Shown here: one piece after another, positions 1-62,426 of the stretch
How positions within the stretch are numbered: position 1 is the stretch's first letter
Layout of the letters: every line of letters begins with the position of its first letter
NCBI RefSeq assembly: GCF_055900595.2
Contig: NZ_CM148325.1
Strand: one strand, 5' to 3'
Length of the DNA: 64,000 nt
Position numbers and translations under genes: made by a program
Notes under the pieces: model-generated
Database searches by the model: none
Seen by the model: the letters and a program-made list of their open reading frames with translations, nothing else
What the model was told of the DNA's origin: nothing

Positions 1-29
1 GCGACTCACACTGCTTCTGGCAGCCTGGT

Positions 30-602
30 TTAGTCATTATGACTGGCATGGATTAACGTCAACCCCGGATGATGCCACAAACTGGCTGGCGTGACGGTTT
101 TACGCTCCCACGGAATAGAACCTAAGAACCAGAATTTCCAGAAAGTGAGTTTTGCATTTGGATTGCTGTTTAGCAGTTCTCCAAACGTCTCTATTTCACC
201 CACCGGAATACATAACGCCTCTTTATAAATATCAAAAACGAATTTTGAACAGAACTGGCGGGAAGATTCGTATTTAAAACCGGTGTGGTAGAACTTATGC
301 AACCGGGCAGGGACCTTTTCGACAAGAGCAAGTTTCTGCTCTGCGGTTAAACCTCCTGCCAGGCGGCGAACACCGTAGCGTTGCTCGGTCGACCGTTCAA
401 TAAATCGTGACAAAGTTGTGATTGTGGAGAGCGGAACTCGACTCTCCGCAACCAGGTAATCATCACCGTCATGTCCGATGATTATCCCCACATGGTTGCT
501 CCAGCATTTCGAGGCTGCAGAGATTTGCCCAAACAGGCGAGCACCGATGCAGGTAAAAACAATATCACCGGTTTCATATTTAGCTGGGTAATTTATTTTC
601 AC
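30..602 (-). CDS. yebB: YebB-like protein (conserved core gene divergent from ruvA); apparent GTG start at 600-602
   Basis: 190-aa ORF; position divergent from ruvA matches core synteny; protein recalled as YebB-like from memory, not verified. Confidence 0.65.
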
Positions 603-695
603 TATATCAATCCATTATTTATATATAAAACAGCATCTATCTTTCGTGATGGTAAAGCATTAGCATTGTATTGTAATAATGACAAGGAATGTTTT

Positions 696-1520
696 ATGCG
701 GTTATTTATTAATGTGATAATGATAGTTTCGATCAGTCAATGCGTGAATGTATTTGCTCAAGATAATGTCATTCGCTATCCCTGGCGATATGGACGTATT
801 TCTTTAAATGAGAATAATGAGTTTGTGCCTCAAATTATTCATATGCGTGATGATATCTACGGCGTGGGTGAAGTTGGTGCAAGCCTTAACGATGCGAGAA
901 TGGCGCAAAGTGGTGTCACCGTGAGGCTTAGCGTTATACAGCAGGGGCAGGTGGTGAATGCTTTACTGGATTTCTACAATAGCAATAATCAACCTGCTTA
1001 TATATTTGAAGGCGGTTTATTGTCCTGCAATAAAGCCTTTGACATCACAACAAACAACATTGTCCTTGATGGGATGTGTGGAATTTATGATGGGGTCGAT
1101 GGCTGGCAAGTTATTCCTGCGGGTGAGCATTATAAAGAATCGTTTTCACTCACTCAGGCTTTTGAATTCTTGCCGGGAAAACATCATTATAAAATTAATG
1201 CCGGAGGTTTTATCATCAGAGTCGGGGATGATATTTTTGCAAGAGAAGATGCCGAAAGCATTCTTTTTGATTTGATTAACTGGCGATATGGCTATGTGCT
1301 AAAAAGTTATGAAAGGGTGTCAAAGGGGGATTTGATGGCAGGATATTATGCTCTGTATGAATACTCAGGCGCTGACATAATTGATGAGTATGATATTTAC
1401 TCAAACCAGGTGTCGATTGATCTTAATGGTGACGAGTTAGCACATACGGAGTCCTATCAGTGGCGAATTGATAGCGGAATGATCCCGGAAAAATTCAGCG
1501 TTCAGGGACTCGCTGAATGA
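696..1520 (+). CDS. hypothetical secreted protein, 274 aa, with predicted Sec signal peptide (MRLFINVIMIVSISQCVNVFA / QDNV)
   Basis: ATG at 696 preceded by AAGGA (684-688); N-terminus has n/h/c signal-peptide architecture with V at -3 and A at -1; the track ORF 471-1520 is trimmed because 471-602 overlaps yebB. Confidence 0.55.
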   Translation: MRLFINVIMIVSISQCVNVFAQDNVIRYPWRYGRISLNENNEFVPQIIHMRDDIYGVGEVGASLNDARMAQSGVTVRLSVIQQGQVVNALLDFYNSNNQPAYIFEGGLLSCNKAFDITTNNIVLDGMCGIYDGVDGWQVIPAGEHYKESFSLTQAFEFLPGKHHYKINAGGFIIRVGDDIFAREDAESILFDLINWRYGYVLKSYERVSKGDLMAGYYALYEYSGADIIDEYDIYSNQVSIDLNGDELAHTESYQWRIDSGMIPEKFSVQGLAE

Positions 1521-1557
1521 ATCGTCCTCTACCTGCTTGCCAGATACAGAGGCGCGG

Positions 1558-2127
1558 ATGAATTTATCAAGCGTATTCAATCAGCTTTTAATCTCATTAG
1601 CTCTTGCCGGGACGTTGATATCAAGCAGCTATCTCATGGAAGCTCACTACCCGCGTTTCAGGAAGCCAATTGCGTTCTTTTACTTCTTCTTAGCAATTTA
1701 TACCAGTTATGCTGCCGTTCTGGAGTATGAGTACCACCGCACTAGCTTGACTACGCTCGCAAAAGTTTCTTCGGTTCGTTATACCAGTAATTTTGAGCGT
1801 AGCGCCTCGCACTCCTGCAATTTACTGCGGGGAGGAAGGATTGATTGCACGGGGCTGTATGCCTATGACCTGACCTGGCAGATTGACGGTAAGACCTGGA
1901 ATTTGCATGTTGAGGACAAGCGTATAAAACCAGGATTCACCATGTGCGTGAAGGTTGTAAAAGATCGCCCCGCCATCGGGAAATCCTGTGAAAACGCGTT
2001 TTTCAATGTCAGCCCTTTGCCGATTCTGATAGCTATATGGGCAATCAGCGCATTTATATTTGCGGTCTTACTCCTTCACAGACTAAAAAAATGCCGCAAA
2101 TGGAAGCACGCCAGCAAGGGGCGTTGA
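1558..2127 (+). CDS. hypothetical membrane protein, 189 aa, about three hydrophobic segments and a Cys-containing loop of about 90 aa
   Basis: ATG at 1558 with AGAGG 5 nt upstream (alternative TTG at 1537); hydrophobic stretches LLISLALAGTLISS, IAFFYFFLAIYTSYAAVL, LPILIAIWAISAFIFAVLLL; 37 nt downstream of ORF1, same strand. Confidence 0.5.
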   Translation: MNLSSVFNQLLISLALAGTLISSSYLMEAHYPRFRKPIAFFYFFLAIYTSYAAVLEYEYHRTSLTTLAKVSSVRYTSNFERSASHSCNLLRGGRIDCTGLYAYDLTWQIDGKTWNLHVEDKRIKPGFTMCVKVVKDRPAIGKSCENAFFNVSPLPILIAIWAISAFIFAVLLLHRLKKCRKWKHASKGR

Positions 2128-2229
2128 AAAATTGGGCATTAGAAGTGTGATGTAAGGGGGATTCATACAGAATTTCTGATGCTGTGAGCAAAAGGATTAT
2201 CATTTCTGAAATGATTTAATATCATCCCT

Positions 2230-2249
2230 CGCTGGATATCTATCCAGCA
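2230..2249. promoter_or_regulatory. LexA (SOS) box of the ruvAB promoter, CTGGATATCTATCCAG
   Basis: CTG-N10-CAG palindrome at 2232-2247, 50 nt upstream of ruvA start. Confidence 0.8.
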
Positions 2250-2298
2250 TTTTTTTATCATACAGCATTATCTTTGATTCATTACGCAGGAGCGTCAT

Positions 2299-2910
2299 GT
2301 GATAGGCAGACTCAGAGGCATCATCATTGAAAAACAACCCCCACTGGTATTAATTGAAGTGGGCGGCGTAGGCTATGAAGTGCATATGCCGATGACCTGT
2401 TTTTATGAACTCCCTGAAGCGGGTCAGGAAGCGATCGTTTTCACCCACTTTGTGGTGCGTGAAGACGCGCAACTGCTGTACGGTTTTAACAATAAACAAG
2501 AGCGCACGTTGTTCAAAGAGTTGATCAAAACCAACGGCGTTGGGCCTAAACTGGCATTGGCAATCCTCTCCGGAATGTCAGCGCAGCAGTTCGTTAATGC
2601 CGTTGAGCGTGAAGAAGTGGGGGCGCTGGTGAAACTGCCGGGTATTGGCAAAAAAACCGCCGAACGCTTGATTGTCGAAATGAAAGACCGATTTAAAGGT
2701 TTACATGGCGATCTCTTTACGCCAGCTGCCGACCTGGTACTCACGTCACCTGCCAGCCCGGCGACCGATGATGCCGAACAGGAAGCGGTTGCCGCGCTGG
2801 TGGCGCTGGGCTATAAACCACAAGAAGCAAGCCGCATGGTGAGCAAAATCGCTCGCCCTGACGCCAGCAGTGAAACATTAATTCGCGAAGCCCTGCGCGC
2901 CGCGTTATGA
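2299..2910 (+). CDS. ruvA: Holliday junction branch migration complex subunit RuvA (GTG start)
   Basis: 203-aa [31 protein letters not shown]... recognised as RuvA. Confidence 0.97.
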
Positions 2911-2915
2911 GGTAA

Positions 2916-3929
<1,014 letters not shown>

Positions 3930-3970
3930 GTTGAATAAGGTATTCAAGCCGCTTCCGACATTGGCGATAA

Positions 3971-4059
3971 GCCTGATGCGACGCTGTTCGCGTCTTATCA
4001 GGCCTACCAGAAGTAGCGAACCGTAGGTCGGATAAGGCGCTCGCGCCGCATCCGACAAA
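3971..4059. repeat. pair of REP (repetitive extragenic palindromic) elements
   Basis: GCCTGATGCGACGCTG...CTTATCAGGCCTAC and GTAGGTCGGATAAGGCGCTCGCGCCGCATCCGACAA palindromic units between convergent ruvB and znuB. Confidence 0.75.
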
Positions 4060-4075
4060 TGTGTTCAGCGACAGA

Positions 4076-4861
4076 TTAGCTGGCCTGCTTTTTCATCATA
4101 CTGATAATAAATAACAGTGCCGCACATAGCACTACCGACGGACCCGCCGGCGTATCGTAAAATGCGGAAAAGGTTAAACCGCCAGTTACTGCCACCATTC
4201 CCACCAAAACAGCGACACCGGCCATCTGTTCCGGCGTGCGGGCAAAGCGACGCGCTGTAGCTGCAGGAATAATCAGCAGCGAAGTAATAATCAACGCGCC
4301 GACAAATTTCATCGCTACACCAATCGTCAATGCTGTCACCAGCATCAACAACAATTTCACGCGCTGTAATTTCACACCATCAACAAACGCCAGATCCGGG
4401 CTAATCGTCATTGACAGCAAATTGCGCCATTGCCAGAACAGAATCGCCACCACGATGACCACGCCAATCGCAATAGAGATGAGATCTTCTGGCGTCACTG
4501 CCAGCAAATCACCGAACAGGTAAGCCATCAAATCAACACGAATGTTAGACATCAGACTAACGACCACCAGGCCCAGCGACAGGGCACTGTGCGCCATAAT
4601 CCCTAATAACGTGTCGATCGCCAGCTGTGGGCGCTTCTCCAGCCATACCAGACCGCCCGCCAGCAGCAGCGTAACCGCAATCACCGCATAGAATGGATTA
4701 ACGTCCAGCAACAAACCAAACGCGACGCCAAGTAACGAGGCATGAGCCAGTGTATCACCGAAATAAGACATACGACGCCAGACCACAAACGAACCCAGCG
4801 GACCCGCGGCACAGGCGAGCATGATCCCGGCTAACCAACCAGGAAATAATAATTCAATCAT
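4076..4861 (-). CDS. znuB: zinc ABC transporter permease ZnuB
   Basis: 261-aa polytopic membrane ORF; synteny with znuC and znuA. Confidence 0.95.
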
Positions 4862-9054: not shown

Positions 9055-9080
9055 AAAAGCCTCTCGCGAGGAGAGGCTTC
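9055..9080. terminator. hairpin between convergent lpxM and pykA (T-run on the minus strand)
   Basis: AAAAAGCCTCTCGCGAGGAGAGGCTT stem-loop flanked by an A-run. Confidence 0.5.
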
Positions 9081-9143
9081 CGCCGTGTGATAAGTTCAAG
9101 TTTGCTTCAGAAGATTCGAAATCTGTTGAACTATCATTGAACT

Positions 9144-9179
9144 GTAGGCCGGATGAGGCGTTTTCGCCGCATCCGGCAA
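9144..9179. repeat. REP element
   Basis: GTAGGCCGGATGAGGCGTTTTCGCCGCATCCGGCAA. Confidence 0.7.
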
Positions 9180-9184
9180 CGTAC

Positions 9185-10627
9185 TTACTCTACAGTTAAA
9201 ATACGCGTGGTATTAGTAGAACCCACGGTACTCATCACGTCGCCCTGGGTGACAATCACCAGGTCACCAGACATCAAGTAACCTTTATCGCGCAGCAGAT
9301 TAACCGCTTCGCTGGCAGCTGCTACGCCGTCATTAGCGCTATCAAAGTGCACCGGCGTAACGCCACGATAGAGAGCAGTCAGATTCAGCGTACGTTCATG
9401 GCGCGACATAGCGAAAATCGGCAGACCGGAGCTGATACGGGAGGTCATCAGAGCGGTACGACCCGATTCGGTCATAGTGATGATCGCCGTAACGCCTTTC
9501 AGGTGGTTAGCCGCGTACATCGCTGACATGGCGATAGCTTCTTCCACATTGTCGAACTGAACGTCCAGACGGTGTTTAGAAACGTTGATGCTCGGGATTT
9601 TTTCAGCACCCAGGCAAACACGCGCCATGGCTGCAACGGTTTCTGAAGGATACTGACCAGCAGCAGTTTCTGCAGACAGCATCACAGCGTCAGTACCATC
9701 CAGAACGGCGTTTGCTACGTCCATGACTTCCGCACGCGTCGGCATCGGGTTAGTAATCATTGACTCCATCATCTGGGTCGCAGTGATTACCGCGCGGTTT
9801 AGTTGACGTGCACGACGGATCAACGCTTTCTGAATGCCGACCAGTTCCGGGTCGCCAATTTCCACACCGAGGTCGCCGCGAGCAACCATTACCACGTCAG
9901 AGGCGAGGATGATGTCATCCATTGCATCCTGGCTGCAAACGGCTTCCGCACGTTCAACTTTGGCGACAATTTTTGCATCACAACCTGCGTCGCGAGCCAG
10001 GCGGCGTGCATAGTTCAGATCTTCGCCGCAGCGCGGGAAGGAAACAGCCAGGTAATCTACGCCAATCAACGCCGCAGTCTTAATGTCTGCTTTGTCTTTT
10101 TCGGTCAGCGCTTCAGCCGACAAACCACCGCCGAGTTTGTTGATACCTTTATTGTTGGAGAGCGGACCGCCGACGGTCACTTCGGTGAATACTTTCATGC
10201 CTTGAACTTCCAGTACTTTTAACTGGACGCGACCATCGTCCAACAGCAGGATGTCACCAGGCACGACGTCAGCAGGCAGGCCTTTGTAGTCGATACCGAC
10301 TTTTTCTTTGTCGCCTTCACCTTTACCCAGGTTGGCGTCGAGCAGGAATTTATCCCCAATATTGAGGAAAACTTTGCCTTCTTTAAAGGTGGATACACGA
10401 ATTTTGGGCCCCTGGAGGTCACCCAGAATAGCCACATGACGCCCCAGTTTTGCGGCAATTTCACGAACTTTATCCGCGCGCATTTTGTGATCTTCAGGAG
10501 AGCCGTGAGAAAAGTTCATACGTACAACGTTTGCACCCGCAGCGATAACTTTCTCAAGGTTATTATCGCGATCTGTTGCTGGGCCTAACGTGGTAACGAT
10601 TTTTGTTCTGCGAAGCCTTCTGGACAT
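9185..10627 (-). CDS. pykA: pyruvate kinase II PykA (start at [11 protein letters not shown]; track ORF has a 47-codon upstream extension)
   Basis: 480-aa pyruvate kinase sequence; GGAG-type RBS before the ATG at 10627. Confidence 0.95.
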
Positions 10628-58524: not shown

Positions 58525-60210
58525 TTGAAGAAGGTTTGGCTTAACCGTTATCCCGCGGACGTTCCGACGGAGATCAACCCTGACCGTTATCAATCTCTGG
58601 TAGATATGTTTGAGCAGTCGGTCGCGCGCTACGCCGATCAACCCGCGTTTGTGAATATGGGGGAGGTGATGACCTTCCGCAAACTGGAAGAACGCAGTCG
58701 CGCGTTTGCCGCTTATTTGCAACAAGGGTTGGGACTGAAGAAAGGCGATCGCGTTGCGTTGATGATGCCTAATTTATTGCAATATCCGGTGGCGCTGTTT
58801 GGCATTTTGCGTGCCGGGATGATCGTTGTAAACGTTAACCCGTTGTATACCCCGCGTGAGCTGGAGCATCAGCTTAACGATAGCGGCGCATCAGCGATTG
58901 TTATCGTGTCTAATTTTGCCCACACTCTGGAAAAAGTGGTTGATAAAACCGCCGTTCAGCACGTTATTCTGACCCGTATGGGCGATCAGCTATCCACGGC
59001 AAAAGGCACGGTAGTCAACTTCGTTGTTAAATACATCAAGCGTCTGGTGCCGAAATACCATCTTCCAGATGCCATCTCATTTCGCAGCGCACTGCATAAC
59101 GGCTACCGGATGCAGTACGTCAAACCCGAACTGGTGCCAGAAGATTTAGCTTTCCTGCAATATACCGGCGGTACCACTGGTGTGGCGAAGGGCGCGATGC
59201 TGACTCACCGCAATATGCTGGCGAATCTGGAACAAGTTAACGCGACTTATGGGCCGCTGTTGCATCCGGGCAAAGAGCTGGTGGTGACGGCACTGCCGCT
59301 GTATCACATTTTTGCTCTGACCATTAACTGCCTGCTGTTTATTGAACTGGGTGGGCAGAACCTGCTTATCACTAACCCGCGCGATATTCCGGGGTTGGTA
59401 AAAGAGTTAGCGAAATATCCGTTTACCGCGATAACCGGCGTTAACACCTTGTTCAATGCGTTGCTGAACAATAAAGAGTTCCAGCAGCTGGATTTCTCCA
59501 GTCTGCATCTTTCTGCAGGCGGTGGTATGCCTGTTCAACAAGTGGTGGCTGAACGTTGGGTGAAACTGACCGGACAGTATCTGCTGGAAGGTTATGGCCT
59601 GACCGAGTGTGCGCCGCTGGTCAGCGTTAACCCGTATGATATTGATTATCATAGTGGTAGCATCGGTTTGCCGGTGCCGTCGACGGAAGCCAAACTGGTG
59701 GATGATGATGATAATGAAGTACCACCGGGTCAACCGGGTGAGCTTTGTGTCAAAGGACCGCAGGTGATGCTGGGTTACTGGCAGCGTCCGGATGCTACCG
59801 ATGAAATCATCAAAAATGGCTGGTTACACACCGGCGATATCGCGGTGATGGATGAAGAAGGATTCCTGCGCATTGTCGATCGTAAAAAAGACATGATTCT
59901 GGTTTCCGGTTTTAATGTCTATCCCAACGAAATTGAAGATGTCGTCATGCAGCATCCTGGCGTACAGGAAGTCGCAGCTGTTGGCGTACCTTCCGGCTCC
60001 AGTGGTGAAGCGGTGAAAATCTTCGTAGTGAAAAAAGATCCATCGCTTACCGAAGAGTCACTGGTGACCTTTTGCCGCCGTCAGCTCACGGGCTACAAAG
60101 TACCGAAGCTGGTGGAGTTTCGTGATGAGTTACCGAAATCTAACGTCGGAAAAATTTTGCGACGAGAATTACGTGACGAAGCGCGCGGCAAAGTGGACAA
60201 TAAAGCCTGA
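58525..60210 (+). CDS. fadD: long-chain fatty acid-CoA ligase FadD (TTG start at [10 protein letters not shown]; the track ORF is extended upstream)
   Basis: 561 aa with AMP-binding motif [12 protein letters not shown]. Confidence 0.93.
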
Positions 60211-60228
60211 GCGTTAAGTCAGTCGTCA

Positions 60229-60256
60229 GACGCCGGTTAATCCGGCGTTTTTTTTG
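60229..60256 (+). terminator. rho-independent terminator downstream of fadD
   Basis: CGCCGGTTAATCCGGCG hairpin followed by TTTTTTTT. Confidence 0.8.
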
Positions 60257-60279: not shown

Positions 60280-61407
60280 TTGAATTACCAAATGATTACC
60301 ACGGACGATGCGCTGGCTTCTTTGTGTGAAGCCGTCCGTGCCTTTCCGGCGATAGCCCTGGATACTGAATTTGTTCGTACGCGCACCTATTACCCGCAGC
60401 TGGGTCTAATTCAACTTTTTGATGGTGAGCATCTGGCGCTAATTGATCCTCTCGGGATCTCCGACTGGTCACCGCTGAAAGCGATACTGCGCGATCAGTC
60501 CATCACAAAATTTCTCCATGCGGGCAGTGAAGATCTGGAAGTGTTCCTCAATGTCTTTGGCGAATTACCACAACCCTTGATTGACACGCAAATCCTTGCT
60601 GCCTTCTGCGGACGCCCGATGTCATGGGGTTTCGCTTCCATGGTGGAAGAGTATTCCGGCGTTACGCTGGACAAGAGTGAATCGCGCACCGACTGGCTGG
60701 CCAGACCGCTGACCGAACGTCAGTGTGAATACGCAGCGGCGGATGTCTGGTATCTGTTACCGATCACCGCAAAGCTTATGGTAGAAACGGAGGCCTCCGG
60801 CTGGCTACCTGCGGCGCTGGATGAATGCCGCCTGATGCAAATGCGTCGTCAGGAAGTCGTTGCACCGGAAGATGCCTGGCGTGATATCACCAATGCCTGG
60901 CAGTTACGCACACGCCAACTGGCCTGTCTGCAACTGTTAGCCGACTGGCGACTGCGCAAGGCGCGGGAGCGCGATCTGGCGGTGAACTTTGTCGTGCGTG
61001 AAGAGCATTTGTGGTCGGTAGCGCGTTATATGCCGGGAAGTTTAGGCGAACTGGACAGCCTGGGCTTATCCGGTAGCGAAATCCGCTTTCACGGTAAAAC
61101 GCTGCTGGCGCTGGTGGAAAAAGCGCAGACATTGCCGGAAGAGGCCTTACCGCAGCCGATGCTTAACCTGATGGACATGCCGGGTTATCGTAAAGCGTTT
61201 AAAGCGATTAAGTCGCTGATTACTGACGTGAGCGAAACACACAAGATCAGCGCCGAATTGCTGGCATCGCGTCGGCAAATCAACCAGCTGCTGAACTGGC
61301 ACTGGAAACTGAAACCGCAGAACAATTTGCCGGAGCTGATTTCCGGCTGGCGTGGTGAGCTGATGGCGGAAGCATTACACAATTTATTGCAGGAATATCC
61401 ACAGTAA
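60280..61407 (+). CDS. rnd: ribonuclease D (TTG start)
   Basis: 375-aa ORF MNYQMITTDDALASLCEAV... with DEDDy exonuclease and HRDC domains. Confidence 0.93.
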   Translation: MNYQMITTDDALASLCEAVRAFPAIALDTEFVRTRTYYPQLGLIQLFDGEHLALIDPLGISDWSPLKAILRDQSITKFLHAGSEDLEVFLNVFGELPQPLIDTQILAAFCGRPMSWGFASMVEEYSGVTLDKSESRTDWLARPLTERQCEYAAADVWYLLPITAKLMVETEASGWLPAALDECRLMQMRRQEVVAPEDAWRDITNAWQLRTRQLACLQLLADWRLRKARERDLAVNFVVREEHLWSVARYMPGSLGELDSLGLSGSEIRFHGKTLLALVEKAQTLPEEALPQPMLNLMDMPGYRKAFKAIKSLITDVSETHKISAELLASRRQINQLLNWHWKLKPQNNLPELISGWRGELMAEALHNLLQEYPQ

Positions 61408-61411
61408 AATC

Positions 61412-61458
61412 TTCCGAAGCCGGACTGGGCGCGCTCAGCGCCACATCCGGCTTCGGCA
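61412..61458. terminator. inverted repeat between convergent rnd and yeaX (putative bidirectional terminator)
   Basis: CCGAAGCCGGA...TCCGGCTTCGG with GC-rich palindromic interior; no strong T-run. Confidence 0.4.
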
Positions 61459-61460
61459 AA

Positions 61461-62426
61461 CTACAAATCCAACACCAGGCGTTTACCCTTCGCGCGTGAA
61501 CAACAGATCAACATACTTTGCTGGCTGGCACGCTCTTCATCGCTAAAATACTGATCCCGATGGTCAGCTTCACCTTCCAGTATTGCCGTTTCGCAGGTTC
61601 CGCATACCCCTTCACGACATAAACATTCCACTTTAGCTGCTTTACTATTTTCAATAACCTGCAAAATAGTCATCTCTTCCGGCACCACAAACTCTTTTCC
61701 GGAACGGGCAAGCACCAGCGTAAATGCATCGCCGGTTTTGTCTTCGATAGCAAATTGCTCAAAGTGCAGCGTATCGGTGGCGATGTCCAGACGCGCAGCT
61801 TCACTTCTTACCGCCTCATTTAGCGCCTCGGGGCCACAGGTATAAACATGTGTGCCAGGTTCGATATCCGCCAATAATCGCGCTAATTCCAGTCGTGTTC
61901 CGGTTGATGAATGATGCAAATGGACTTTCTCGGCCTGCGGATGCTGGACTAGCTCATCACGAAATGCGCAACTTTCTGGATTTCGCGAGCAGTAATGTAA
62001 CTGCCAGTCGACGTCGCTGTATTGCAACTCTGCCATGTGCGACAGGAAAGGGGTGATACCAATACCGCCCGCGATAAACAGATGCTTTCTGGCCGAGGGA
62101 ATTAGCGCAAACAGATTATTAGGCGTCGAAATGGTCAACCGATCGCCTGCTTTCACCTGCTGATGCAAAAAGCGCGAACCACCGCGCGAGTTTTCTTCCA
62201 GCCGAACGGCAATCTGATAACGAGACGTATCGAGTGGCGAACTCAGCAGTGAGTACGCATTGCTGTACTGGTTATCACCATCGCTCATCTGCACAATGAT
62301 GTGACTTCCTCCAGTAAACGCAGGTAATGGTTTGCCATCGGTTGCCACCAGCGTGAAGCGTTTCACCTGTTCGGTAAGGGGGTCAACCTGACTCACCTGT
62401 ACTTCAAACATTTGGTAGTTTGACAT
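61461..62426 (-). CDS. yeaX: carnitine monooxygenase reductase subunit YeaX (FNR-like plus 2Fe-2S ferredoxin)
   Basis: 321-aa ORF. Confidence 0.9.
   Translation of the reverse strand: MSNYQMFEVQVSQVDPLTEQVKRFTLVATDGKPLPAFTGGSHIIVQMSDGDNQYSNAYSLLSSPLDTSRYQIAVRLEENSRGGSRFLHQQVKAGDRLTISTPNNLFALIPSARKHLFIAGGIGITPFLSHMAELQYSDVDWQLHYCSRNPESCAFRDELVQHPQAEKVHLHHSSTGTRLELARLLADIEPGTHVYTCGPEALNEAVRSEAARLDIATDTLHFEQFAIEDKTGDAFTLVLARSGKEFVVPEEMTILQVIENSKAAKVECLCREGVCGTCETAILEGEADHRDQYFSDEERASQQSMLICCSRAKGKRLVLDL

Follow-up and report, generated by a model that had tools for sequence, protein, structure and literature searches.

REP/BIME elements have been described since 1984 and amount to about 600-700 units per E. 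coli genome; under the names REP or palindromic unit they are reportedly associated with Stern (1984) and with Gilson and Bachellier. The E. coli units include a y class of 35 nt and a z2 class of 37 nt, in which GTAG is followed by an imperfect palindrome with a conserved AA-GC mismatch (PMC8266576). As to placement, about 60% of E. coli REPs lie between convergent and about 40% between tandem genes (bioRxiv 10.64898/2026.03.23.713779). A z2 and a y unit joined by a short linker, with a tandem number that varies between strains, make up BIME-2 (PMC3333891), which is a target of DNA gyrase binding and cleavage according to Espeli & Boccard 1997 as quoted in PMC3333891. The REPs that flank rayT (the ‘REPtron’) are experimentally studied substrates of RayT (PMC3333891), an enzyme that needs the AA/GC bulge (PMC8266576), and the insertion sequence IS1397 inserts specifically into the palindromic units of BIMEs (Clément 1999, as quoted in PMC3333891).

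The DNA analysed here, referred to as the window, is a stretch of 64,000 nt of an E. coli chromosome that is 97.2% identical to K-12 MG1655 over 21 kb (2.8% diverged) and runs in inverse orientation relative to MG1655 coordinates 1.925-1.950 Mb. The surroundings of its REPs are 100% identical to E. coli strain 2017-02-2CC. Along the plus strand (genes on the minus strand are marked), the order of genes and REP units is ruvC, yebB (minus), two hypothetical genes, ruvA, ruvB, units u1 and u2, znuB (minus), znuC (minus), znuA, mepM, lpxM, unit u3, pykA (minus), yebK (minus), zwf, edd, eda, purT (minus), yebG, yebF, units u4 and u5, yebE and ptrB. All five units are thus extragenic, in the gaps ruvB/znuB, lpxM/pykA and yebF/yebE. 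An earlier reading of the sequence alone (hereafter the sequence-only reading) had placed them at convergent gene ends; this holds for ruvB/znuB and lpxM/pykA and fails for yebF/yebE, a tandem pair with both genes on the plus strand. Both placements are typical, given the published split of about 60% to 40%.

Each unit was scored with a covariance model that was built from the five window units themselves, so that these match it by construction; the scan was filter-free. Unit u1 (3970-4007, minus strand; GTAGGCCTGATAAGACGCGAACAGCGTCGCATCAGGC) belongs to the z2 class, with 37 nt plus 1, and appears as an iREP when read on the plus strand. Its stem lies 41 nt after the ruvB stop codon (TAA, 3927-3929); it scores 49.4 bits and forms a DNA hairpin of -12.8 kcal/mol (z -5.4). 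A linker of 15 nt, read from the sequence (4008-4022), separates its CTAC from the GTAG of u2 (4023-4057, plus strand; GTAGGTCGGATAAGGCGCTCGCGCCGCATCCGACA), a y unit of 35 nt whose stem lies 19 nt after the znuB stop codon (4076-4078). This unit scores 56.1 bits, folds with -10.9 kcal/mol and is identical in K-12.

The solitary y unit u3 (9144-9178, plus strand, 35 nt; GTAGGCCGGATGAGGCGTTTTCGCCGCATCCGGCA) is located in the pykA 3' UTR. It scores 53.5 bits, forms the most stable of the DNA hairpins (-16.4 kcal/mol, z -7.1) and has a single mismatch relative to K-12. Its stem lies 7 nt past the pykA stop codon (9185-9187, minus strand); the sequence-only reading, which had set a unit at 9144-9179 before pykA, was mistaken on this point, as the gene is on the minus strand and the unit is 3' of it. 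The last pair begins 27 nt after the yebF stop codon (18240-18242) with the stem of u4 (18269-18303, minus strand; GTAGGGCGGATCAGGCACTCGCGCCGCATCCGCC), a y unit of 35 nt that scores 50.2 bits and has a compensated G-C swap in its outer stem; its K-12 orthologue has lost the GTAG and scores 34.5 bits. From the CTAC of u4, a 14-nt linker, again read from the sequence (18304-18317), leads to the GTAG of u5 (18318-18354, plus strand; GTAGGCCTGGGAAGACGCAACAGCGTCGCATCGGGCA). This z2 unit of 37 nt has a worn outer stem, scores 46.8 bits, folds with -8.0 kcal/mol and ends 214 nt before the yebE start codon (18569).

When aligned on the GTAG-bearing strand, all five units have an invariant GTAG at their 5' end. 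Next comes an outer stem of 7 bp; an internal 2x2 mismatch separates it from an inner stem of 4-5 bp, which closes a loop of 4-5 nt. The outer stem is of the GCCGGAT type in the 35-nt units u2, u3 and u4 and of the GCCTGAT type in the 37-nt units u1 and u5, and the bulge is AA/GC in u1, u2 and u5, GA/GC in u3 and CA/GC in u4. As single-stranded DNA the units fold with -8.0 to -16.4 kcal/mol (z -1.9 to -7.1). Standard pairs occupy 95% of the pair cells, against 25-40% when the partners are slid, a comparison that is illustrative only with five sequences. Compensated stem changes are present in u2 and u4, and within the same five sequences compensatory changes occur at three pairs, one of which appears as C-G, U-A and G-C.

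Membership in the REP family was examined with a consensus pattern that allowed a few mismatches. It matched the window exactly five times (3971-4007, 4023-4056, 9144-9177, 18270-18303 and 18318-18353), while none of 100 dinucleotide-preserving shuffles of the window gave a match. Because the design of this pattern had been partly informed by the window sequence, independent checks were added: the K-12 orthologues, the REPs flanking rayT, the Rfam naRNA4 family and the copy number across genomes. The K-12 record has no annotated REP repeat features; with the window-derived model, orthologous units were found in all three gaps at 34-56 bits. The same model gave 41.7-49.1 bits for six non-orthologous REPs of alternating orientation that flank rayT in K-12, and the window units score as well as these. 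Elsewhere in the 64 kb, apart from the opposite strands of the five units, nothing exceeded 21 bits. The 91-nt u1-u2 pair has matches in 5,425 of 5,426 complete E. coli genomes, with a median of at least 40 places per genome (5,292 records reach at least 40) and a sum of at least 216,100 chromosomal places and at least 327 on plasmids; the six matches listed have no annotated feature beneath them. At gathering thresholds, Rfam returned no REP match anywhere in the window; below them, the naRNA4 model, built from a different REP element (REP325), matched the ruvB/znuB element at E=2.4e-8, which supports the family assignment.

At the level of sequence, these units show all the features that define the E. 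coli y and z2 classes. In GTAG, bulged stem, unit length, extragenic 3' placement and copy number they are the same as the classes described by Ton-Hoang 2012 (PMC3333891) and Corneloup 2021 (PMC8266576), and they show no difference of substance from them; what sets them apart is limited to the variant bulges of u3 and u4, the compensated stem changes of u2 and u4, the worn stem of u5 and a decayed sixth unit discussed below. We are therefore highly confident that the window palindromes belong to the E. coli family of REP repeats (palindromic units), of which they are ordinary copies. They are an already known kind of element with its expected behaviour. In this respect the sequence-only reading stands: the GC-rich palindromic REP units that it had recognised at three sites are there, with coordinates that agree to within 1-3 nt, and its description of them as typical of an E. 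coli-type chromosome is confirmed by the y and z2 features and by the identity of the window as E. coli. The REP consensus search that it had proposed, with a lack of matches to REP families named as the outcome that would speak against it, found matches to the family. The REPs thus confirm that the window is ordinary E. coli backbone.

All REP units lie within the first 18.4 kb of the window, and in the remaining ~45 kb (18400-64000) nothing scores above 21 bits. The genome-wide average is about one REP element per 13 kb; this scarcity is marginal and may be due to chance.

Both pairs combine a y and a z2 unit in inverse orientation, u1 (z2, minus) with u2 (y, plus) and u4 (y, minus) with u5 (z2, plus), and their GTAG/CTAC ends face each other across the short linkers of 15 and 14 nt. 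On sequence grounds, and with linkers judged by length alone, the ruvB/znuB and yebF/yebE pairs are assigned to the BIME-2 type. They resemble it in the inverse arrangement of y and z2, with ends facing across 14-15 nt, and in a unit number that varies among strains at ruvB/znuB, and differ from its long tandem arrays in being single pairs plus one remnant. A search for z1 units across the window found none, hence no BIME-1 (y plus a 29-nt z1, with a long L linker carrying an IHF site).

At ruvB/znuB, the window has two units and one remnant, K-12, ATCC 25922, TUM20902 and GF43 have three units each, and ESDR8 has five in the order y-z2-y-z2-y with a period of ~97-99 nt, in which the 15-nt linker class alternates with a 10-nt linker. 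In Ecol_244 (NZ_CP019020.1), IS1397 (80-1512 of the extracted locus) interrupts the loop of the z2 orthologue of u1 and is flanked by a TGT target duplication. The gap thus offers a small worked example of REP dynamics, comprising decay, amplification from three to five units and capture by IS1397. Separately, UTI89 (354-423 of the extracted locus) and Ecol_244 carry an extra segment of ~70 bp inside the znuB-proximal y unit; this segment has an inverted repeat of its own (GCAGAGAAAA…TTTTCTCTGC), is flanked by a duplicated GGTCGGATAAGGC and may be a small MITE-like insert.

With regard to function, every step proposed for these particular units is drawn by analogy from other REPs. REPs have been assigned a dual role as terminators and stabilisers with context-dependent effects, and a longer mRNA half-life is not a general effect of terminal REPs (bioRxiv 10.64898/2026.03.23.713779). 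Stabiliser and terminator work by Newbury 1987 and others is quoted in PMC12306157, as is the report of Liang 2015 that REPs no more than 15 nt from a stop codon cause ribosome stalling and lower translation. The most likely role of the window units would accordingly be modelled on these: 3'-UTR hairpins that lend stability to mRNA and bring about partial termination, besides being potential substrates of RayT and IS1397. The REPs would be transcribed within the 3' UTRs of ruvB, znuB, pykA and yebF, and their hairpins are indeed present in the minimum-energy RNA folds of every flanking 3' UTR (z -2.2 to -5.5). As stem-loops they would block 3'-to-5' exonucleases and so stabilise the upstream mRNA. 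A second role would be that of incomplete, in part Rho-dependent terminators, which would reduce transcription running on into the facing or downstream gene; this fits the outcome of a consensus scan for terminators made of a hairpin and a T-tract, which found none in the ruvB/znuB gap (3930-4075) or the yebF/yebE gap (18243-18568). The pykA transcript has its own intrinsic-terminator-like hairpin and U-tract downstream of u3 (9055-9081, minus strand; an 11-bp stem, then TTTTTTTATTT), the one convincing terminator site near the REPs. The folded RNA of the pykA 3' UTR contains this hairpin, so u3 would not be needed for termination there. Among the five units, u3 is the only one within 15 nt of a stop codon, that of pykA, and at 7 nt it could be expected to cause ribosome stalling and to lower translation.

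At the DNA level, the GTAG-bearing strand would be the kind of single-stranded substrate that the tyrosine transposase RayT (TnpA_REP) binds and cuts. The GTAG needed by RayT is kept in the window units; judging by the bulge of u3 (GA/GC) and u4 (CA/GC) and by the worn stem of u5, some of the units may be poor RayT substrates. Among 5,426 E. coli genomes, 3,574 carry the gene rayT and about a third lack it. Unlike the REPtron, the window has no rayT gene, and its elements are conserved in position with K-12, which gives no sign of recent mobility. The y+z2 pairs might in addition act as gyrase sites, and the REP loops as IS1397 targets, for which the insertion at ruvB/znuB in Ecol_244 is an actual instance.

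The strongest competitor of the 3'-UTR role sees in the units nothing but selfish mobile DNA without autonomy, doublets of the REPIN kind that RayT has spread. They would have no host function at these loci and would simply persist in 3' intergenic space that is not essential. The window pairs, with their units inverted across a short spacer, match the anatomy of REPINs and BIMEs (PMC3337134), and the variation in unit number between strains points the same way. So does lineage-specific decay, which has affected the ruvB-proximal unit in the window and the GTAG of u4 in K-12. The divergence of the REP-bearing bins is a further point: among the 250-nt bins of the aligned 21 kb, the one with the REP patch at ruvB differs most from K-12 (28 mismatches), the bin with the yebF/yebE REPs has 15, and most others have single figures. 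Nevertheless, the same three gaps are occupied in lineages that are 2.8% diverged, so the units are old residents and not recent arrivals, and published experiments show host-level effects for other REPs. We consider a purely selfish nature possible, with the balance tilted clearly against it, bearing in mind that the selfish and the host-function views are not mutually exclusive.

Returning to the units as 3'-UTR hairpins, the one feature of mild interest is found immediately upstream of u1. The sequence-only reading had given the ruvB/znuB element as 3971-4059, which covers the u1/u2 pair correctly and omits a decayed y-type unit that extends the element leftward to 3926. This sixth unit (3926-3960, plus strand) overlaps ruvB at its stop codon only. 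In K-12 the positions that align with it one to one form an intact unit of 33.9 bits; the window copy scores 7.6 bits, begins with TTAA instead of GTAG and folds as DNA without the REP stem. In the alignment to the Rfam naRNA4 family it falls on the y hairpin with six pairs broken. Relative to other E. coli it carries ~15 substitutions, mostly G-to-A and C-to-T, and window-like alleles (at least 95% identity) are found in 44 of 5,425 genomes. In K-12 and every other sampled strain a y-type unit starts at the ruvB stop codon (CCG TAA GTCGGAT…), with GTAA in place of GTAG. The canonical ATAAGG, lost from the K-12 allele, persists in the window allele, and from their sequences the two therefore look like independent decays of one ancestral unit.

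This region lies near a second lineage-specific feature, a segment of ~1.6 kb (roughly 617-2221) between yebB and ruvA that is absent from K-12. Of 5,426 complete E. coli genomes, only 19 have the insertion; in the eight matches listed its identity is 94.8-97.6%. Its GC content is lower, at 34-48% in 300-nt windows. Searches of Pfam, PADLOC, NCBIfam and PHROGs with its two plus-strand ORFs (471-1520 and 1537-2127; 349 and 196 aa) were without a match. The filter-free covariance-model scan found no REP-like match with E ≤ 10 in 1-3700, which bears out the earlier statement that no REP flanks the insertion and rules out REP-associated mobility as its source. As a separate observation, the yebB beside the insertion is only 81% identical to K-12 yebB. 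At least six genomes with the insertion are also among the closest matches of the REP region; the decayed REP and the insertion thus share one rare haplotype.

This linkage raises the question of a functional connection. The premise is that more than 99% of complete E. coli genomes have a y-type hairpin right after the ruvB stop codon, a position reported for ribosome stalling; the 15-nt rule would likewise apply to the ruvB-proximal unit of most E. coli, which is destroyed in this lineage. Destruction of a hairpin at such a position on a rare haplotype might therefore raise RuvB output. That the loss is indeed a regulatory change of this kind, linked to the inserted genes functionally as well as physically, is in our estimation improbable. 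The lineage-specific loss of the REP abutting ruvB is the sole mildly interesting point of the REP analysis, and the linkage is worth noting when the insertion is evaluated.

A different reading of the ruvB/znuB element would have it encode a naRNA4-like nucleoid-associated small RNA that condenses the chromosome with HU. The covariance model of naRNA4 (RF02564, derived from REP325) does align over its full length to 3929-4004, with 49.9 bits and E=2.4e-8, the two share a two-hairpin layout of y, linker and z2, and about 80% of REPs are reported to be transcribed (PMC4550694). The score is nevertheless below the Rfam gathering score of 59.5, the locus is different from REP325, and the decayed unit with its broken pairs takes the place of the first hairpin. 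The match reflects the y+z2 REP sequence that both have in common and not a distinct gene; moreover, REP325/naRNA4 has been found to have no measurable effect on nucleoid compaction (bioRxiv 10.64898/2026.03.23.713779). We thus regard a dedicated small RNA at this locus as very unlikely.

The remaining idea, that the units only look like REPs and are in fact Rho-independent terminators or GC-rich hairpins that arose by chance, has in its favour that they are GC-rich stem-loops just past stop codons and is refuted by the sequence-family evidence to the point of being negligible, as no T-tract follows any unit, the terminator scan reports none of them, their primary sequence is common to all including GTAG and bulge, and there are at least 40 occurrences per genome with no match in 100 shuffles.

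Several other structured sites were recorded in the window alongside the REPs. Between u3 and the pykA terminator lies an imperfect palindrome (9093-9143) with 24-nt arms that are 71% complementary; it is AT-rich, unlike REP, and nearly identical in K-12. A nearly perfect GC-rich hairpin (61416-61452), which lies in the 53 bp that separate the convergent ORFs 60280-61407 (plus strand) and 61461-62426 (minus strand), has a y-like sequence (GCCGGA…GGCGC…GCGCC…TCCGGC) with neither GTAG nor the AA/GC bulge. The REP model gives it 18.8 bits and its RNA fold reaches -34 to -37 kcal/mol (z -6.5 to -7.7); it probably represents a terminator that works in both directions or the remains of a very old REP. 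Finally, Rfam matches at gathering level were obtained at 25028-25172, 40662-41121 and 60169-60254, corresponding to the overlapping antisense pair SraC/RyeA (minus strand) and SdsR/RyeB (plus strand), a cspA-type 5'-UTR thermoregulator and sroD; all three sites are expected in this part of the chromosome.
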